Source: a virus (lineage: Duplodnaviria; Caudoviricetes). Taken from it: DNA of 28,915 bases. The DNA is taken from positions 1 to 28,915 of IMG/VR virus record IMGVR_UViG_3300017747_000976. One strand, written 5' to 3'. A model generated the notes under the pieces. The model was not told where the DNA came from and searched no databases. It saw only the letters and a list, made by a program, of their open reading frames with translations. The translations under genes were made by a program, and so were the position numbers. Shown one piece after another: positions 1-20,239 of this stretch (the first letter of the stretch is position 1; each line of letters begins with the position of its first letter).

Positions 1-135
1 CAGGTTGGGGATCGGGTTTGGTATCGGGTCAGAAGTCAGGTCAAGGGTCGGGTTAGAGATCAGGTCTGGGAGCAGGTCGAAAGTCAGGTCTGGGATTGGG
101 TCAGATATCAGCTAGAACAGGAACTAAACCAATGA
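1..135 (+). CDS. QVWD-tetrad repeat mini-protein 1 (5'-truncated by window edge)
   Basis: Manual translation of frame 1 gives [44 protein letters not shown]. Stop TGA 133-135 overlaps ATG 132-134 of the next gene (ATGA). Not in the ORF track. Confidence 0.75.
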
Positions 136-422
136 AATCTGTTAAGGTTCGGGTCAGGGATCAGGTCAGGGATCGGGTCAGGGATCAGGTCGTGGATCAG
201 GTCTGGGGTCAGGTCTGGGATCAGGTCTGGGATCAGGTCAGGGATCAGGTCAGGGGTCAGGTCTGGGATCAGGTCTGGGGTAAGGTCGGAGGTCAGGTCT
301 GGGATCAGGTCAGGGATCAGGTCTGGGTTCAGGTCAGGGATCAGGTCTCGGTTCAGGTCAGGGATCAGGTCTGGGATCAGGTCAGGGGTCAGGTCATAGA
401 TCAGGTCTGGGATCAGGCTCGA
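1..422 (+). repeat. 12-bp tandem repeat array A, consensus GATCAGGTC(T/A)GG
   Basis: Directly visible. 23 units at 147-422 and more degenerate units at 1-111. Confidence 0.97.
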
Positions 423-455
423 AAGGAACTAAACAAAGGCCTTTCAATTCTCTAA
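132..455 (+). CDS. QVWD-tetrad repeat protein 2 (107 aa, 23 tetrads)
   Basis: Start moved from 96 to ATG 132. MKSVK N-terminus matches the paralogs, AGGA SD lies at 119-122, and it is ATGA-coupled to the upstream gene. Ends [10 protein letters not shown]. Confidence 0.8.
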
Positions 456-470
456 ATCATCGTGTAATCT
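442..470 (+). promoter_or_regulatory. candidate sigma70-type promoter for the DUF6745 cassette
   Basis: TTTCAA-N17-TAATCT upstream of SD AGGAG (494-498) and ATG 507. The -35 element is weak. Confidence 0.35.
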
Positions 471-506
471 ATCAAAAGCGAACATAGCAAATAGGAGCTA
501 TACATC

Positions 507-1382
507 ATGGCAAACGAGAAGATTAAGAGCTTGACTAAGCAGCAGGAAGCTCTCTTTCCTGTCTATGTTGAACGGTGGAAAAAGATCGGCCTTTCGACGG
601 AAAGAATGGATAGAGAGGCCGCCATCGCTGCCGCGAAGAAGGCCTATCGTTTGGTAGGTCTGAAGGAGCCTACCAACTTCTACTTTACCAAGTCTCCTAT
701 CGACGCGGTAAACTTCATTAAGAAGAATTTGGACAAGAAAAGCTCTAAGTCTGAAATCTTCGGACAAATGATCTATGGCTGTCACGAGGCCCCTTGGCTT
801 AGTTTCTACTCATTCTTCAAGGAACAGTGCAATCTCGAAGTCTGTAACAAGCTCGAAGGCTTGATGGAGTTGGCCGATCATACAGGTTGGCTGTCTGTGT
901 ATGAAGATACTGTAGTCTTTCAAGAAAAGCCCACCGTCATTCACTTCGACGATCAAGACAGGCTTCATTGCGAGACTGGTCCTGCCGTCGAGTACGAGGA
1001 TGGTTTCGGTATCTACGCTTGGCATGGTGTTTCCATTCCTAAAGAATGGATCGAAAAGCGCAGCGAACTAACGCCTAAGATCGCCCTCGGTTGGTCTAAC
1101 ATCGAACAGCGCCGAGCCGCTTGTGAGATTGTGACATGGGCGCGAATTCTCCGCGAGCTTAATGCTAAGGTGGTCGATGCCGATGACGATCCGATGATTG
1201 GAACGCTTGTCGAAGTGGACATTCCCGATGTAGGTACTGAGAAGTTTCTCAAGGTCATTTGTGGGACTGGTCGTGAGTTTGCTATCCCAGTTCCACCCAC
1301 TATGACGAAGGCTCTTGACGCAAACGCTTGGACCTTCGATCTCGACGGTGATACTCTGCGTCAGCTTGAGGTACGTACCTAA
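507..1382 (+). CDS. DUF6745-like protein (291 aa) without internal tetrad repeats
   Basis: Recognisable motifs LTKQQEALFPVYVERWKKIGLST, SP, YGCHEAPWLSFYSFF, RLHCETGPAVEYEDG..YAWHGV, NIEQRRAACEI, VICGTGREFAIPVP..ALDANAWTF. SD AGGAG. Confidence 0.75.
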   Translation: MANEKIKSLTKQQEALFPVYVERWKKIGLSTERMDREAAIAAAKKAYRLVGLKEPTNFYFTKSPIDAVNFIKKNLDKKSSKSEIFGQMIYGCHEAPWLSFYSFFKEQCNLEVCNKLEGLMELADHTGWLSVYEDTVVFQEKPTVIHFDDQDRLHCETGPAVEYEDGFGIYAWHGVSIPKEWIEKRSELTPKIALGWSNIEQRRAACEIVTWARILRELNAKVVDADDDPMIGTLVEVDIPDVGTEKFLKVICGTGREFAIPVPPTMTKALDANAWTFDLDGDTLRQLEVRT

Positions 1383-1415
1383 ACAATTCAGATCATCCAG
1401 AAAGGAAAACAGACT

Positions 1416-1769
1416 ATGAAAACCTTCACCAAAATGGCCGCCCAAGGCGACTTCATTATCATGCGTATCAAGGCCCTGCCGAAGGGTCTGGTTAAGGTTG
1501 CTCCAGTTCAGGGCAAGCATATCGTCGCTCACTCCGAGACTGGTCACAATCATGTCATGGAAGCAGAGCATGTGACTGCGTACAAGAGCGAGAAGATCAC
1601 AGATGACAGTAAGTTGTTTGAACTGTTCTTCTCGGTAGAAAAGGACACGCCTATCGAACACTTGCGCTCGTTCGATACTCACGAAACGTTGCTGGTCCCT
1701 GCTGGCGACTACATTGTGAAGCGTCAGCGCGAATACGTGCCGGAAGGCTTCCGCAAGGCTGCCGACTAA
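1416..1769 (+). CDS. His-rich small protein, typical downstream partner of DUF6745 genes
   Basis: Motifs QGD, AHSETGHNH, H-x4-THE, PAGDYIVKRQREY. SD AAGGA upstream. Confidence 0.7.
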   Translation: MKTFTKMAAQGDFIIMRIKALPKGLVKVAPVQGKHIVAHSETGHNHVMEAEHVTAYKSEKITDDSKLFELFFSVEKDTPIEHLRSFDTHETLLVPAGDYIVKRQREYVPEGFRKAAD

Positions 1770-1792
1770 TCGCTAAGAATAATTCAAAATGT

Positions 1793-1853
1793 AAATGGCG
1801 TCTTGGGGTTCCTGCAAGTTATGAATAAGGTATCTCAAGACGCCATTTTATTT
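1793..1853 (+). terminator. long stem-loop (intrinsic terminator or RNase III-type processing site)
   Basis: Perfect 13-bp inverted repeat AAATGGCGTCTTG (1793-1805)/CAAGACGCCATTT (1836-1848). Extends to about 21 bp with two G-U pairs and one mismatch, 14-nt loop, T-rich 3' tail. Confidence 0.75.
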
Positions 1854-1879
1854 CAGACTACAGAGAAGGAGCTTCTTAA

Positions 1880-2119
1880 ATGAGAAGCATCAAGGATCAG
1901 GTCTGGGATCAGGTCTGGGATCAGGTCTGGGATCAGGTCTGGGATCAGGTCTGGGATCAGGTCAGGGATCAGGTCAGGGGTCAGGTCTGGGATCAGGTCA
2001 GGGGTCAGGTCTGGGATCAGGTCTCGGTTCAGGTCAGGGATCAGGTCTGGGGGCAGGTCAGGGATCAGGTCATGGATCAGGTCTGGGAACAGGTCTGGGA
2101 TCAGGTAAAAAGGAATTAA
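1880..2119 (+). CDS. QVWD-tetrad repeat protein 3 (79 aa, 18 tetrads)
   Basis: SD AAGGAG 1866-1871. MRSIK followed by 18 DQVW-like units. Confidence 0.8.
   Translation: MRSIKDQVWDQVWDQVWDQVWDQVWDQVRDQVRGQVWDQVRGQVWDQVSVQVRDQVWGQVRDQVMDQVWEQVWDQVKRN
1895..2110 (+). repeat. 12-bp tandem repeat array B (18 units), first five identical GATCAGGTCTGG
   Basis: Directly visible, same consensus as array A. Confidence 0.97.
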
Positions 2120-2123
2120 ATAA

Positions 2124-2312
2124 ATGAAGTCTGTCACGGAACAGGTCAGGGATGATATCTGGGATCAAGCTGACGAGCAGATAGATAATCAGGTCAAGTA
2201 TAAGGTCTGGTTTAAGGTCTGGGAGTGGGTTGAGGGCGGGATTTTGGATCAGATTGAGGAGCAGACCAAGGAGAAAATCTTGGACCAGATTCACAAGGAA
2301 CTAAACCGATGA
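2124..2312 (+). CDS. diverged QVWD-tetrad protein 4 (62 aa, 13 tetrads)
   Basis: MKSVT...KELNR with the 4-residue register retained. SD AAGGA at 2110-2114. Confidence 0.75.
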   Translation: MKSVTEQVRDDIWDQADEQIDNQVKYKVWFKVWEWVEGGILDQIEEQTKEKILDQIHKELNR

Positions 2313-2497
2313 AATCTGTCAAAGATCAGGTCTGGGATGAAGTTGAGATGCCAAGCTGGAACTATATCAAAGATCAGGGCTGGATAAATGTCTGGGATCA
2401 AGTTAACGAGGGGATAGGGTATCCGGTCGAGGATCAGGTCAGGGAACAGGTCTGGAGGCAGGTCTGGAATCAGGTTAAAAAGGAATTAAACCAATGA
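2309..2497 (+). CDS. diverged QVWD-tetrad protein 5 (62 aa, 13 tetrads)
   Basis: MKSVKDQVW...QVKKELNQ, ATGA-coupled on both sides. Confidence 0.75.
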   Translation: MKSVKDQVWDEVEMPSWNYIKDQGWINVWDQVNEGIGYPVEDQVREQVWRQVWNQVKKELNQ

Positions 2498-3027
2498 CAC
2501 GAACAATTCTTCATACTAGCCTTGCGGTTATAGCTTTTGGGTTTCTGTTCTTGGGTTTCAAGGAACCTTACAATCCCCCACAAGAACCTATAAAACAAAT
2601 CTATACAGAAGAAGATTTACATTGGTTGACAATGAACATTTATTTCGAGGCCCGCAACCAACCCCTTGCAGGAATGTTGGCAGTTGGACAAGTTGTATTG
2701 AACAGAGTAGAGCATCCTAATTATCCTAAAACTGTAAAGGATGTTGTAACCCAAGCCAAATTAAATGCCAACGGACAACCCATAAGAAACAAATGCCAGT
2801 TTTCTTGGTACTGTGACGGAAAGAAAGACGAGATAAATAAAACTGATAAACTCTATTCAAAAGTAGAGTATGCTGCCCGTCTTGTGTTAGAGAGACGTAT
2901 TCCAGACTTGGTAGATGGAGCGACCCATTACCACACTATCAAGGTCAGAAGAGAGTGGGGATATCCCTTGACAACAGTAATAGAAGATCATATTTTTTAT
3001 AGAAAACCAACTCCAAAGGGAGCCTGA
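2494..3027 (+). CDS. SleB-like cell wall hydrolase (Hydrolase_2) with N-terminal hydrophobic anchor/signal
   Basis: NIYFEARNQ, AVGQVVLNRV, YP.TV..VV.Q, CQFSWYCDG, GATHYH, I.DHIFY. Confidence 0.9.
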   Translation: MTRTILHTSLAVIAFGFLFLGFKEPYNPPQEPIKQIYTEEDLHWLTMNIYFEARNQPLAGMLAVGQVVLNRVEHPNYPKTVKDVVTQAKLNANGQPIRNKCQFSWYCDGKKDEINKTDKLYSKVEYAARLVLERRIPDLVDGATHYHTIKVRREWGYPLTTVIEDHIFYRKPTPKGA

Positions 3028-3032
3028 AATAA

Positions 3033-3197
3033 ATGAACAGCCCTATTCTTATCGTTATCGTTACTTTTATATATGCCCTAGAAGCTCTCCGTCTTGTCTA
3101 TATCGGACAGTCTGGGCTAGGCCTAACCTTCTTTGGTTATACGATTGCTAACATAGGCTTGATTTGGGCTATCTCTCAGAGTTCATCGAGCCAGTAG
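3033..3197 (+). CDS. small membrane protein (54 aa, two hydrophobic segments)
   Basis: Manual translation MNSPILIVIVTFIYALEALRLVYIGQSGLGLTFFGYTIANIGLIWAISQSSSSQ*. Fills the intergenic gap, GGAG upstream. Confidence 0.6.
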   Translation: MNSPILIVIVTFIYALEALRLVYIGQSGLGLTFFGYTIANIGLIWAISQSSSSQ

Positions 3198-3200
3198 CAA

Positions 3201-3662
3201 ATGAAAGACAAACATATTCAGGCGTACATGGCAACGGCACATGCGTTTGCTAATTGTTCGTCGGCCCAGAGGCTGCACGTAGGCTGCATCATTGTAAAGG
3301 ATGACCGTATCATATCCATAGGATACAATGGTATGCCTTCCGGTTGGACAAACGAGTGCGAGGATTTGTCTTTCTTTTCTGACACCGGCAAGCAGCTTAT
3401 AGCTCCCCTGCTGGTGACAAAAAAGGAAGTTCTGCACGCCGAAACAAACGCCATAGCCAAGCTGGCGAAAGAGGGCGGAGGGGGAAGAGGAGCCACAGCC
3501 TTTATTACCCACGCCCCCTGTCTCGACTGCGCCAAAATAATTTTCCAATCAGGGATTATTAGTGTATACTATGCCCAAAAATATAGGTCGGAAGATGGCC
3601 TAAGTTTTCTGGAGAAATGTGGTATACCTTGCACACAAGTGAAGGTAAATTTTAATAACTAA
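3201..3662 (+). CDS. dCMP deaminase (ComEB-like)
   Basis: IISIGYNGMPSG, HAETNAI, THAPCLDCAK Zn motifs. Confidence 0.9.
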   Translation: MKDKHIQAYMATAHAFANCSSAQRLHVGCIIVKDDRIISIGYNGMPSGWTNECEDLSFFSDTGKQLIAPLLVTKKEVLHAETNAIAKLAKEGGGGRGATAFITHAPCLDCAKIIFQSGIISVYYAQKYRSEDGLSFLEKCGIPCTQVKVNFNN

Positions 3663-3681
3663 AACAAGGAGTTACACAGAT

Positions 3682-4140
3682 ATGACCTTTTCGCTAAAGT
3701 CCTTCCTTCGCTTTGAAAATACACTCGGCCATCTTTTTGGCGAGTGTAATGTTACAACAAAAGAAAAGAGTGACGCCACTTACTGGGGATACCACCTAGT
3801 CCTAAACTGCGCCGCTTGTGAAATTCCTAAAATTACGAGTAAGAAAAATGTTGATAAGTTCACCCGTGAATTGGTGAAACGTATTGACATGAAGGCATAT
3901 GGCGATCCTCAGATCGTTAAATTTGGTACAGGAAACAAGGCAGGGTTTACGCTTGTCCAGCTTATCGAGACAAGTAACATTTGCGCCCATTTCTGCGATG
4001 GCTCTGGCGATATGTACCTCGATGTATTTTCCTGCAAGCCGTTTGAAAGAGAAACTGTTGAAAATACAGTTAAAGAATTTTTCAATCCACAAAGCATGAA
4101 TGGAACCTTCCTTCTGCGTAACGCCCAAGACAAGGTATAG
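3682..4140 (+). CDS. speD: S-adenosylmethionine decarboxylase-like pyruvoyl proenzyme (SpeD family)
   Basis: WGYHLVLN, G.TLVQLIETSNICAHF (self-cleavage region), YLDVFSCKPF. Confidence 0.75.
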   Translation: MTFSLKSFLRFENTLGHLFGECNVTTKEKSDATYWGYHLVLNCAACEIPKITSKKNVDKFTRELVKRIDMKAYGDPQIVKFGTGNKAGFTLVQLIETSNICAHFCDGSGDMYLDVFSCKPFERETVENTVKEFFNPQSMNGTFLLRNAQDKV

Positions 4141-5958: not shown

Positions 5959-6366
5959 ATGAACCTAGACAGAACAAAGAACCTTCTGCTGAACATTGCA
6001 GAGGACATTTCCTATCCTGTTAGGAATTACCGTCTAGCCTCTGCTGTTATCTTTAAGAACCAGATTGTCAGTGTAGGTGTTAACAGCCAGAAGACCGATC
6101 CTTTTCAAACGAAGTATATGAAGAACCCATTCTCCATCTACATTCATGCGGAAGTGTCTGCTGTCAAGAATGCTCTAAAAAGAATTGATTTAGACGACTT
6201 CAAGAAAAGTAGTCTGATCGTTGTTCGTATAAAAAGAAACGAAACTAACACGGCCTTTATTCCTGCTATGGCAAAGCCTTGCATGGGTTGTATGTCGTGT
6301 ATATCTGAATTTGGAGTGAAACATATTCACTTCACCAACGAAGAAGGTAACTTGGTGCAGCTATGA
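5959..6366 (+). CDS. second Zn-dependent cytidine/deoxycytidylate deaminase-fold protein
   Basis: IHAEVSAV and AKPCMGC (HxE...PCxxC). Confidence 0.8.
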   Translation: MNLDRTKNLLLNIAEDISYPVRNYRLASAVIFKNQIVSVGVNSQKTDPFQTKYMKNPFSIYIHAEVSAVKNALKRIDLDDFKKSSLIVVRIKRNETNTAFIPAMAKPCMGCMSCISEFGVKHIHFTNEEGNLVQL

Positions 6367-17196: not shown

Positions 17197-17958
17197 ATGT
17201 TCAACAAACTTCCGACTATCTACATTGGCTATGATCCTACTGAAGAACTGTACTGCCATGTTCTGAAGAAGTCTATCGAAAGCCATACCAAAACCCCCTA
17301 TAATATTGTGCCTATTGTTCAGTCGGAGGTTCGCAGAGCCGGTCTCTATTGGCGTTCGGGAGAGCTAACAGAGACTGGCGTTGTCGATACTTTCGATAGG
17401 AAGCCCTTCTCTACAGAGTTTAGCTTTACTCGCTTTCTGGTCCCTATGCTAAACCAGTATAGCGGACTAGCCTTGTTCATGGACTGCGATATGTTTGTCC
17501 GTTCCGATATCGATGAAATCTTCGATACGGCAGGAGCGAACAGCAGCGTAGCTATTAGCTGCGTTAAACATGACTACCACCCATCCGACACATCCAAGAT
17601 GGGGGGTAAGGTTCAAACAGTTTACTCCAGAAAGAACTGGTCATCTTTTGTCTTATGGAACTGTGATCATCCTGCGACTAAAGAACTGACCGTTGGCGAT
17701 GTTAACACGAAGTCAGGTTCGTGGCTACACTCTTTCTATTGGCTAGAGTCCGAGCATATCGGTTCTATCAGCCATGAGTGGAACTGGCTTGATGGGCATA
17801 GCCCCGAGAACGTAGAGGCTAAGAATGTACATTTCACAACCGGCGGTCCAATTTATAAAGATTGGAAGCCTTCACGCAACATCGATTCTAAATATGTCAA
17901 AGAGTGGAAAGACTTTTATTTAGGACATTTAAAGGTAGAAAAAAAGAAATATGATTAA
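17197..17958 (+). CDS. GT-A fold glycosyltransferase (GT8-like)
   Basis: IYIGYD, STEFSFTRFLVP, ALFMDCDM (DxD), RKNWSS...WNC.H, EWNWL, VHFT.GGP. Confidence 0.85.
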   Translation: MFNKLPTIYIGYDPTEELYCHVLKKSIESHTKTPYNIVPIVQSEVRRAGLYWRSGELTETGVVDTFDRKPFSTEFSFTRFLVPMLNQYSGLALFMDCDMFVRSDIDEIFDTAGANSSVAISCVKHDYHPSDTSKMGGKVQTVYSRKNWSSFVLWNCDHPATKELTVGDVNTKSGSWLHSFYWLESEHIGSISHEWNWLDGHSPENVEAKNVHFTTGGPIYKDWKPSRNIDSKYVKEWKDFYLGHLKVEKKKYD

Positions 17959-20239
17959 TGTTGTAACTTCATTTAGTTCAGACGGATATAAAACTTACGC
18001 CAAGAATATGCTCCTTTCAGTCATTAAGAACTGGAAGAATGATTTAAAACTAACAGCATATTATCATGACTTTCCAGAAGACTTGATAAAAGACCTTCCT
18101 AAATCTCCACTTATTGAATATCGTAATCTAAACGATATCAAAGATATGCTAGACTATCGAGAGCGTATGAAGCAGTATGACGGTACTATGGGAGGAAAGA
18201 CCCCGTACAACTGGCGTATGGACGCTATCAAATGGTGCCACAAAGTCTATGCTATGACAGACTGTGCGTTCCGTCTAGCAGACGAGAAGAAGAAGGCAGG
18301 ATGGCTTGTCTGGCTGGATGCCGATACCGTAACAACAAAGCCTCTTTCAGCAGAGCGCCTAGCGCCCTTCCTACCCGAGAAAGCAGAGCTAGCTTATTTA
18401 GGGCGAAAAGATGTAGACTACAGTGAAACTTCTTTTGTAGGTTTCAATCTTAGTAAAGAATCTCCTCTACTTCTTCTGGGCGATCTTCGAGGATGCTATG
18501 ACATTGGAGAAGTTATCTCTTACAGAGAGTGGCACGATGGCTTTATCTTTGATCGTCTACTAAAGATTTATATGGCTCATGGGCTACTTGTCCATAATCT
18601 AACACCCAATGTTACTGGCCTAGCGGCATTCCAACAGTCTCCTCTTGCCCAGTATATGACACACTTCAAGGGCAATCTTAAGAACCCCATTCCAGATAGT
18701 GTAGCTCCTGACGTAAACCTACCAAGATATAAGCAGTTGGCTACACTTGTACGTACCTATGCTAAAAATAAGATTGTGGAAGTGGGTACATGGAATGGTG
18801 GTAGAGCCATTGAAATGTCCCTAGCGGCCTTCGAGAAGCATAACAAAGTTCACTATGTAGGCTTTGATCTTTTCGAGGAAGCCACAGCAGAATCGGATAA
18901 AGTAGAACTTAATTCTAAAAGACATAATACTTTTACATCTGTTAAGAACCGTCTCTCTGAGTTCGGAGAGAAGATGAAGGCGCAAGGCAAAACATTTACA
19001 TTTGAGTTATACAAGGGTGACTCTAAGAAGACCCTACAGAAGGCTAAGAAATCTCTTCAGAATGTTTCCTTTGCTTATATCGATGGTGGACATAGTGAAG
19101 AAACGGTACGAAGTGACTATAAGTATTTAAAGCATTCGCCAATCGTCGTCTTTGACGATTACTTCTCAAAAGACATTGATGGGAATATTCTCGGTGAAGA
19201 ACATCAAGGAACTAACAGATTATTTGAGGAGCTTAAGGCTAATAAGAAGGCTAAACAAACGTGCATCGTTCTACCGTCTAACGATAGAGTGCAAGGTGGT
19301 GGAATTACGCATCTGGCTGTGTATGTTCAAGATACTGCGCTCCCGCCTCTACCGCAAGAACTTCTAAGGATTCCTATTGTTGTACGCCCTAAGGATTGTA
19401 TGCCAAAGGACTACATTATCAACAATATTAATGAGAACATTAAACTCATTAAGAAGTGGGGAATTGCTCGCAACTGTAATCCAAATCCAGAACATGCGAT
19501 CATTGTATCGGCAGGACCTTCTCTAGACTACGATGAGCTACGTCGCGTTATTAAAGAAACTAAGGGCGTTGTTCTATCTGTCAAGCACAGTTATCCGCAC
19601 CTTCTAAAAGAGAAAATCCCTCAGTGGGGCTGCATCATTCTAGACCCCCGTACAATTGACGGAGTGTCTACTCATGGCATTGTACGCAAAGAACTCTTTG
19701 CTAAGGTAGACAAGAAGACTAACTTCTTTGTAGCCTCTATGACCGATCCTTCCGTTACTAAATATCTGATGGAACGGACGGATAATGTACATGGCTGGCA
19801 TGCCTACTCGGAAGCTATTCGAGAAGCATCGAAAGACCCCAGAACATTTGCCATTGACAGCAAGGCGAAGCTATCTAAGGACACCACCTTCGTTACAGGT
19901 GGAACCTGTGCGGCTATGCGTGGGGTTGGTCTTATGCACATTCTAGGCTTTAGAAACTTCCATCTATTCGGATTTGACTGCAATATTCCGAAGATGACTG
20001 CTAAGATGAAGGAGGAGAAGCTAGACGGCAAGCCTAAACATATGCCTGTAGAAACGAACGGTAAGAAGTTCTGGACAACAGGAGAGCTTCTAGCTATGGC
20101 ACAAGACTGTGAACGCTTATTCAACAATGCTCAGGTTGATGCTAACATTCAAGTATATGGAAGAAATACGTTAGTGCATGAAGTCTTTAGAAACTCGCAC
20201 CACGCAAAACTTCCCTACTATCTTGATTACTTTAAGTAA
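17951..20239 (+). CDS. three-domain protein: GT-A-like transferase, class I SAM methyltransferase, Maf/DUF115 (MptE-like) domain
   Basis: N-terminal VVTSF...HKVYA...WLDAD...ETSF...EWHD...H.KG. Middle VEVGTWNG, GFDLFE, KGDS, IDGGHS, VFDDY. C-terminal IIVSAGPSL, DPR, FFVASM, GGT.AA, LGFRNFHLFGFDC. Confidence 0.75.
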   Translation: MINVVTSFSSDGYKTYAKNMLLSVIKNWKNDLKLTAYYHDFPEDLIKDLPKSPLIEYRNLNDIKDMLDYRERMKQYDGTMGGKTPYNWRMDAIKWCHKVYAMTDCAFRLADEKKKAGWLVWLDADTVTTKPLSAERLAPFLPEKAELAYLGRKDVDYSETSFVGFNLSKESPLLLLGDLRGCYDIGEVISYREWHDGFIFDRLLKIYMAHGLLVHNLTPNVTGLAAFQQSPLAQYMTHFKGNLKNPIPDSVAPDVNLPRYKQLATLVRTYAKNKIVEVGTWNGGRAIEMSLAAFEKHNKVHYVGFDLFEEATAESDKVELNSKRHNTFTSVKNRLSEFGEKMKAQGKTFTFELYKGDSKKTLQKAKKSLQNVSFAYIDGGHSEETVRSDYKYLKHSPIVVFDDYFSKDIDGNILGEEHQGTNRLFEELKANKKAKQTCIVLPSNDRVQGGGITHLAVYVQDTALPPLPQELLRIPIVVRPKDCMPKDYIINNINENIKLIKKWGIARNCNPNPEHAIIVSAGPSLDYDELRRVIKETKGVVLSVKHSYPHLLKEKIPQWGCIILDPRTIDGVSTHGIVRKELFAKVDKKTNFFVASMTDPSVTKYLMERTDNVHGWHAYSEAIREASKDPRTFAIDSKAKLSKDTTFVTGGTCAAMRGVGLMHILGFRNFHLFGFDCNIPKMTAKMKEEKLDGKPKHMPVETNGKKFWTTGELLAMAQDCERLFNNAQVDANIQVYGRNTLVHEVFRNSHHAKLPYYLDYFK

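Follow-up and report, generated by a model that had tools for sequence, protein, structure and literature searches.

Here we describe a locus at the left end of a 28,915-nt stretch of viral DNA (hereafter, the window), which comprises the whole of IMG/VR entry IMGVR_UViG_3300017747_000976, with an estimated completeness of 49%. The locus appears to consist of a constant pair, a DUF6745 (PF20530) protein (the core) and a small His-rich partner, plus five mini-genes (minis) encoding repeats of the tetrapeptide Gln-Val-x-x. Other DUF6745 homologs hold such a tract inside the protein, at a site where the window core has only a short linker. Among related loci, free minis were found in 30 of 41 clusters with a short-linker core and in none of 12 clusters with a tract-bearing core, and the minis have very probably split off from DUF6745.

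A DUF6745 Core and Five Separate Repeat Genes

The seven open reading frames (ORFs) of the locus were found exactly at the coordinates given in a preliminary description of this DNA (Table 1). The core matches PF20530 at E 5e-34, with 117.8 bits against a cut-off of 27; the match covers residues 88–283 of the protein and positions 8–199 of the 206 in the model. It also matches phrog_31813. The linker is plain, as had been described: it lies between an SP motif at residues 63–64 and YGCH at residues 90–93, contains no tetrad tract, and has a tetrad score of 4, compared to 20–232 in the fused forms. The structure of the core was modeled confidently, with a pLDDT of 92.6 and a pTM of 0.78. Conserved polar residues in its C-terminal part include H154 (99%), N198 (98%), R202 (98%) and C252 (91%), in addition to the terminal E-x-R-T.

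Table 1. Features of the locus and its borders (positions in the window).
Feature	Position	Strand	Description
Mini-gene 1	1..135	+	Cut by contig start; 11 tetrad units; profile E 4.7e-11; stop overlaps ATG of mini-gene 2
Mini-gene 2	132..455	+	107 aa; 24 Q-V-x-x units; two profile matches
DUF6745 (PF20530) core	507..1382	+	291 aa; helical N-terminal part, beta-hairpin middle, alpha/beta C-terminal part with conserved terminal E-x-R-T
Linker in core	699..773	+	25 aa, at the site where fused homologs hold the tetrad tract
Partner (phrog_27831)	1416..1769	+	117 aa, all-beta; invariant H39, E41, H46, H82, R84, D87, H89; terminal D117; predicted metal site
Mini-gene 3	1880..2119	+	79 aa; 19 units; most regular; ends KRN
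Mini-gene 4	2124..2312	+	62 aa; 14 diverged units
Mini-gene 5	2309..2497	+	62 aa; 14 diverged units
Junction motif	119..135	+	AGGA (ribosome-site-like), spacer, ATGA start/stop overlap; encodes "KELN" tail
Junction motif, recurrences	2111–2126, 2295–2312, 2480–2497		Same AGGA/spacer/ATGA DNA encoding "KELN" tail
Long RNA hairpin and U-rich run	1787..1853	+	Between partner and mini-gene 3; −30.7 kcal/mol, z −6.35, 0/200 shuffles
Cell-wall hydrolase gene	2494–3027		Start ATG overlaps stop of mini-gene 5

A profile built from 60 minis gave six matches in the 28.9-kb record, and these were exactly the five mini-genes, two of the matches falling within 132–455. By a period-4 score, each of the five exceeded all 2000 of its residue shuffles, with values of 19.5–77, compared to at most 7 for 538 frames from the rest of the window. 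The four complete mini-proteins share the start M(K/R)S(V/I)(K/T), reading MKSVK, MRSIK, MKSVT and MKSVK. The unit counts of 23, 18, 13 and 13 given in the preliminary description hold when the opening S-[VI]-x-x unit is left out; with this unit included, the counts are 24, 19, 14 and 14. At a lag of 12 nt, DNA identity is 75–81% in two of the five minis and 52% and 44% in minis 4 and 5, which retain the repeat register despite this low identity. Contigs assembled from public DNA runs are identical to the window over 366–1923 and 2022–3000 (X1, which may be the source of the record), with shorter pieces in X2, X3, X4, X5 and X10. Because these contigs leave approximately 234–366 and 1923–2022 unspanned, the unit numbers of the two most regular minis rest on this record.

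All four complete minis had been said to share a KELN-type end. Three of them have it, and the fourth, mini-gene 3, ends in QVKRN, where the junction is shorter by one base; a strain variant with an extra base at 2109 reads KKELNK. A similar ending occurs in only 18 of 301 distinct minis of related loci, tails differ by lineage, 158 of the 301 overlap the start of the next mini, and 132 have no mini start nearby. Tails such as NAEIS or NEIR are the opening codons of the next gene read in another frame. We therefore rejected KELN as a functional tail; judged from its sequence context, it is a by-product of the junction, mostly of the next gene's ribosome site, rather than a protein motif. DNA mimicry was likewise unsupported as a general rule: although net charges of −4 to −6 make three of the window minis acidic, the 301 have a median of 0. 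Searches of the mini sequences against PADLOC and NCBIfam returned low-complexity noise only.

Free Mini-Genes and Internal Tracts in Related Loci

Loci anchored on the core were collected from viral (79), metagenome (80) and genome (28) sequences, the first two sets being drawn from the best 80 of 216 and the best 80 of 518 matches, which favors the short class. To these were added 42 viral loci anchored by the repeat and three annotated records. Two narrow DNA patterns used as searches found one and no loci. The 227 cores form 117 clusters at 90%, excluding the three copies of the window (L001, L084 and L085; such numbers denote individual loci). The short form is a large class, since the best 120 of 482 DUF6745 homologs measure 285–306 aa, and its linker is of set length, at 21 profile-measured residues in 40 of 61 clusters. 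Other homologs have linkers of 81–261 aa at the same insertion site, which bears out the statement in the preliminary description that the tetrad repeat is held internally at this position. A search for longer homologs yielded two proteins with long Ala/Thr-rich inserts and no extra Pfam domain.

Only core-anchored loci that had a classifiable linker and flanks of at least 1 kb on each side entered the contrast. Free minis were present in the 30 of 41 short-linker clusters and the 0 of 12 tract-bearing clusters given above, and in neither of two clusters with other long inserts (Fisher p = 5e-6, a value that overstates the contrast because it is built on few independent events, as described below). 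A first count had given 30 of 41 versus 1 of 8 (p = 0.002); L168 was then removed by hand, and four tracts missed by the score were added by a periodicity test. The detector sees x-[VLI]-x-x units only, so any Ala-Thr free minis near L174, L177 and L182 would be missed in these counts. L168 had been entered as a tract-bearing core with a free mini, but the supposed mini was an artefact produced by reading the Ala-rich repeat of an unrelated ORF in another frame. That 248-aa ORF (L168 1286–2032), which lies 3.3 kb from a fused DUF6745 gene, carries a C-terminal Ser-Ala-Ala-x repeat (SAAR, SAAE, SAAW) resembling the repeat unit of the phage protein Tweety gp54, discussed below.

When the mini profile was run against 10 whole fused-core records, seven of them at least 90% complete, all 10 had matches only inside the fused gene, and in prophiGD102-1 the matches were also confined to the fused gene. 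Starting from the repeat gave a matching picture. Among the 42 repeat-anchored loci, 23 have internal tracts, 15 have free minis and a core in the locus (the L217 core being weak and shortened), one has its core 10.8 kb away, and three have no DUF6745 match. These three comprise one 13%-complete fragment and two genes whose tract is attached to a short domain of another kind. A DUF6745 or DUF6745-like gene is in the frame or record for 39 of 42 loci, and stand-alone repeats occurring independently of it, which the preliminary description had named as a finding that would speak against a split, were the exception: free minis occur in 17 of the loci retrieved by the repeat, and 16 of these have such a gene in the record, the other being the 13%-complete fragment.

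The fused tracts use Ala-Thr-x-x in L174, L177 and L182, and Ser-Val, Ser-Leu, Ala-Val or Gln-Leu in other fused cores. The fixed pair thus varies between lineages, and the logic of two fixed and two variable residues persists. On a quick IQ-TREE tree of 105 core C-terminal domains, the short-linker state needs eight changes, in several places. The short-linker core of L197 lies deep among fused forms, and the minis with a Q-L alphabet (L069 and L078) lie near fused cores of the same alphabet (L171, L175 and L188), at an open fork with a support of 87. The two placements suggest that the split form arose repeatedly.

Several short-linker cores are flanked by genes of 54–76 aa (L058 3993–4356 and 7009–7541, L045 4705–4935, L072 7369–7781) that look like old minis in which the register is mostly lost. 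The mini profile matches two such degenerate small genes in the record of the related L063, at E 2e-5 and 1e-4. In L052, tandem short-linker DUF6745 paralogs (1483–2424 and 3033–4043) have minis between them.

Selection and Turnover of the Mini-Genes

Codon usage was analyzed in 220 free arrays with 2759 inner units, using one locus per cluster. Because arrays were required to be at least 50% Gln, the constancy of columns 1 and 2, seen as 91% Gln and 87% Val, respectively, is overestimated, but the stop deficit is unaffected. Columns 3 and 4 of the free minis carry 3.3 and 3.1 bits, compared to 2.1 and 1.7 bits in 31 fused tracts. None of the 220 arrays has an internal stop, and all 13 in-register stops are gene ends. 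At the 2759 Gln positions there is one stop, a gene end, versus 64 changes to Arg and 70 to Lys, and in column 3 there are five stops, all at gene ends, versus 86 CGG, 105 TTG and 138 TCG codons. Nucleotides 7, 8, 10 and 11 of the 12-nt unit have variabilities of 0.59, 0.49, 0.52 and 0.42, compared to 0.20 at the fourfold-degenerate Val position. This excess at amino-acid-changing positions was found in 42 of 43 free loci and in 26 of 26 fused loci; in the fused loci, it comes from nucleotides 7 and 11 alone. By these codon patterns, the minis are coding and are diversifying at x-x.

The minis also turn over quickly. Compared to the nearest relative, L002, the core, the partner and four flanking genes are 89–98% identical, while the best mini matches reach 39–69%. 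Strain contigs show a loss of 24 nt in mini-gene 2 (near 396–421) and, weakly, at a depth of 2, a skipped mini-gene 3; another carries a different mini set ahead of a near-identical core.

Such rapid gain and loss between strains, the high DNA repetition in two of the five minis, and tails that are mere overlap products would all fit an explanation in which the minis have no function of their own and arise as near-neutral products of a 12-bp coding minisatellite that expands and is copied together with a start and ribosome site. We consider this very improbable. A neutral minisatellite does not account for the lack of stops in the Gln column and in column 3 other than at gene ends, for amino-acid-changing positions that vary more than the synonymous one in 42 of 43 loci, or for minis 4 and 5 keeping their register at low DNA identity, and the codon tests largely refute it.

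The Core and the His-Rich Partner

The partner gene begins 33 nt downstream of the core; this adjacency is a feature recognized in the present analysis and does not belong to the Pfam definition. Its product has the motif series QGD ... HSETGHxH ... QREY ... terminal D, with H44 near-invariant and the terminal Asp present in 133 of 137 sequences, and was modeled confidently, with a pLDDT of 86.3. In 75 of 79 clusters the locus contains the partner, and in 69 it lies within 1 kb. Its conserved His, Glu and Asp residues suggest that it binds metal. The core had previously been called an enzyme, which neither fold nor family evidence supports; the cluster of His, Glu and Asp residues is in the partner.

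Searches with the core and partner models against the PDB gave best VIA Z scores of 4.4 and 3.7, within the common range, and no Foldseek match at E 0.001; these null results demonstrate neither a new fold nor a difference in fold. PDB sequence searches with the core and partner alignments returned nothing credible, the best being a split match to an ABC substrate-binding protein at E 0.0036. In the ESM Atlas, the partner reached only unnamed viral clusters, and the core gave no usable named match. Beyond DUF6745 and the two unannotated PHROGs, these searches yielded no named family for either protein. A literature search for DUF6745, PF20530, phrog_31813, phrog_27831 and QVWDQV found no paper that contains them, although subscription papers and supplements may still mention them.

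Two loci show the core and partner in unusual arrangements. In L197 (5612–6586), the core is extended at its C-terminus by a sequence with a QQGDV motif resembling the partner N-terminus, and the locus yielded no separate partner; this could be a partial core–partner fusion and a hint of contact between the two proteins. In L020 (5734–6849), the reading frame of the partner's N-terminal half continues into the core; compared to L021, a deletion seems to have joined them, either a natural one or an assembly error.

Comparison with Known Systems

The DUF6745 proteins prophiGD102-1 gp38, from a Mycobacterium prophage, and Ma-LMM01 gp174, from a Microcystis phage, have the same N- and C-terminal domains and the same insertion site as the window core, and are adjacent to the same His-rich partner, phrog_27831 (gp37 and gp175, respectively). 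According to supplementary Table S3 of PMC5780444, gp174 and gp175 of Ma-LMM01 are transcribed from 3 h as middle genes. The window differs from fused DUF6745 genes in that its core is without the tract, which is present instead as five separate chained genes.

The closest parallel to the minis is Tweety gp54, whose group includes Che8 gp57 and PMC gp51. Like window-type minis, it has a tetrapeptide unit encoded by 12 bp, with the first two residues fixed and the last two variable at first and second codon positions; in the part of PMC2884959 dealing with gene 54, this pattern is interpreted as selection for variation. Two reviews (PMC9262239, PMC8549241) present gp54, in the passages concerned, as a counter-defense protein that acts against prophage defenses and is tuned by repeat number. 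It differs from the minis in its Ala-Ala-x-x unit, its internal tract, and its tuning by copy number in one gene instead of a panel, and the passages on gp54 in these sources describe no partner. Another phage gene with a variable-number repeat is bbp36 (VR2) of Bordetella phage BMP-1, which is non-essential; by its description in PMC2884959, it is set apart by an internal, 24-bp unit. Overall, our literature searches found variable tetrapeptide tracts inside phage proteins, and did not find their release as a panel of free genes.

Among repeat proteins in general, a constant scaffold with one variable pair per repeat, as in the minis, is also seen in TALE repeats with their repeat-variable diresidues. 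TALE units are about 34 aa long and read DNA bases, and a 4-residue unit is too small for the TALE fold.

Proposed Mechanism and Alternatives

These observations led us to an adaptor model, because internal tracts and free minis exclude each other, the chained frames are intact, Gln-Val is constant with an excess of change at x-x, the minis turn over fast, and core and partner are linked. In this model, the mini-proteins, which may be translationally chained by their overlapping starts, would take the place of the lost tract by docking on the core, which would thereby gain several exchangeable surfaces for recognition. The recognition element would be a helix: its Gln-Val side would pack against the core or against itself, and its x-x side would read the target. 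The partner, with its predicted metal, may be the catalytic part, and the target could be a host defense or another host protein. Binding of the minis to the core in trans is slightly favored. A counter-defense role, suggested by analogy with Tweety gp54, is possible, although we lean somewhat against it. Taken as a whole chain, a constant core–partner pair supplied in trans with an exchangeable, diversifying recognition tract, probably directed against host defenses, is put forward tentatively, as a proposal just short of an even chance.

A number of findings weigh against the adaptor model. The anti-correlation between internal and free repeats, which the preliminary description said would support a split, stands as a count, but 51 of the short-linker clusters form one clade, and only two independent pairs occur on starred branches (sign test p = 0.5), so that the contrast is not yet phylogenetically significant. 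Eleven of the 41 short-linker clusters show no mini in the flank. Seven of these were searched as whole records: minis, elsewhere or diverged, were present in L072 (nine), L063 (two) and L030 (two to three), whereas none were found in L008 and L041, both fragments, or in the L189 assembly, and the complete 62.6-kb L076 record has only two to three units, inside its own core. Ma-LMM01 has the core and partner with neither a tetrad tract nor Q-V minis, and the pair can thus exist without the tetrad module. The minis in L072 sit 8–14 kb from the core, and the fused tracts, at 81–261 aa, are mostly longer than a single mini (median, 64 aa). In L206 (9805–10179, − strand; record rated complete) and L233 (9733–10140, − strand), a Q-V-x-x tract is joined to another kind of C-terminal domain, about 50 aa in length, and the record has no PF20530; a scan of the L206 domain gave no Pfam match. 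The core and partner match no PADLOC or NCBIfam family at E 0.1, and no defense-related gene recurs beside the core except DUF932, in 10 clusters. Finally, hhalign revealed no homology between the core and Tweety gp54 (probability 0.1, E 0.74), which itself has no Pfam match.

Some of the same findings would be expected if the minis do not need the core and serve by themselves as binders, decoys or sponges for host or competitor proteins. They would then have arisen by DUF6745 fission and remained close to it through descent and joint expression, with the shortened core and the partner acting alone. Consistent with this, the pair occurs without Q-V minis in Ma-LMM01 and L076, minis lie up to 14 kb from the core and sometimes on the opposite strand, up to 25 profile matches accompany one core, more than a single docking site seems to need, and the tract is also fused to another domain in L206 and L233. 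However, decoys would be equally useful in fused-core genomes, where no free minis were found (0 of 12 clusters and 0 of 10 whole records), and 16 of the 17 repeat-anchored loci with free minis keep a DUF6745 or DUF6745-like gene. We regard independent action of the minis as unlikely.

Recognition between phages, or of self, was also considered. Here, the core and partner would be an effector keyed by the x-x code, and the minis would be keys or antidotes that neutralize or redirect the DUF6745 of co-infecting phages. The code diversifies both in the fused tracts and, with a wider alphabet, in the free minis, and closely similar cores occur in unlike phages, with 70% identity between this T7-like phage and L003, whose neighbors look T4-like. 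Short, chained, fast-turning gene arrays beside a conserved pair also resemble poly-immunity arrays. On the other hand, fold searches found no toxic or enzymatic fold for the core or partner, and fused-core phages, which would gain from antidotes too, have no free minis. This explanation appears distinctly less probable than action as stand-alone binders.

Genome Setting and Neighboring Genes

The window is a fragment of a T7-like podophage, with the repeat/DUF6745 locus upstream of the replication genes. Family and domain matches in the record include primase-helicase, family A polymerase, ThyX, class II ribonucleotide reductase and terminase small subunit. The polymerase is closest to those of Pelagibacter phages HTVC103P and HTVC104P, at about 50% identity, and the best-matching public DNA runs are freshwater and drinking-water metagenomes. 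A promoter scan gave five matches, compared to 3.1 ± 1.7 expected, i.e., chance level. The hairpin between the partner and mini-gene 3 may be a terminator or an RNase III-type site; in 11 of 54 short-linker clusters, the partner is followed by a hairpin with z below −3, and L002 has none.

Clustering of neighboring genes revealed no constant gene besides the partner, and the largest clusters consisted of frames read on the reverse strand of the core and partner genes. DUF932 was found in 10 clusters, cell-wall hydrolase in seven, and ERF and YqaJ in six each. The DUF932 gene, the commonest recurrent neighbor after the partner, lies at most 4 kb from the core (for example, L151 7469–8419).

Elsewhere in the window, two genes of the dCMP-deaminase family (3201–3662 and 5959–6366) occur in this one small phage genome, and a strain contig is without 311 nt (3200–3510) of the first. 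A glycosyltransferase-8-like gene and a gene of 762 aa with methyltransferase and MptE-like domains, at 17197–20239, are probably a DNA or surface modification module.

Biological Implications

DUF6745 and its partner are common in environmental phages, with 482 and 901 protein clusters, respectively, and no assigned function. In its broadest form, the proposal is of a widespread, previously undescribed system of phages whose two folds matched nothing in the PDB searches. A two-residue code on a Gln-Val-x-x helix would set the choice of target, and several lineages would have independently turned a built-in tract into a multi-gene, plug-in adaptor library. We consider this broad form somewhat unlikely. 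If true, one constant effector could be re-aimed at many host defenses or rival phages, with whole mini-genes as the units of a diversity generator driven by slippage and recombination.

Because the variable module already occurs in nature as separate minis, its binding and specificity can be studied on individual small peptides. The minis may offer a handle on how a variable tetrapeptide tract tunes counter-defense, a point called obscure for Tweety gp54 in the relevant passage of PMC8549241. If the adaptor model is correct, the locus would represent a new way for phages to keep a specificity library, and possibly a small, programmable binding scaffold.

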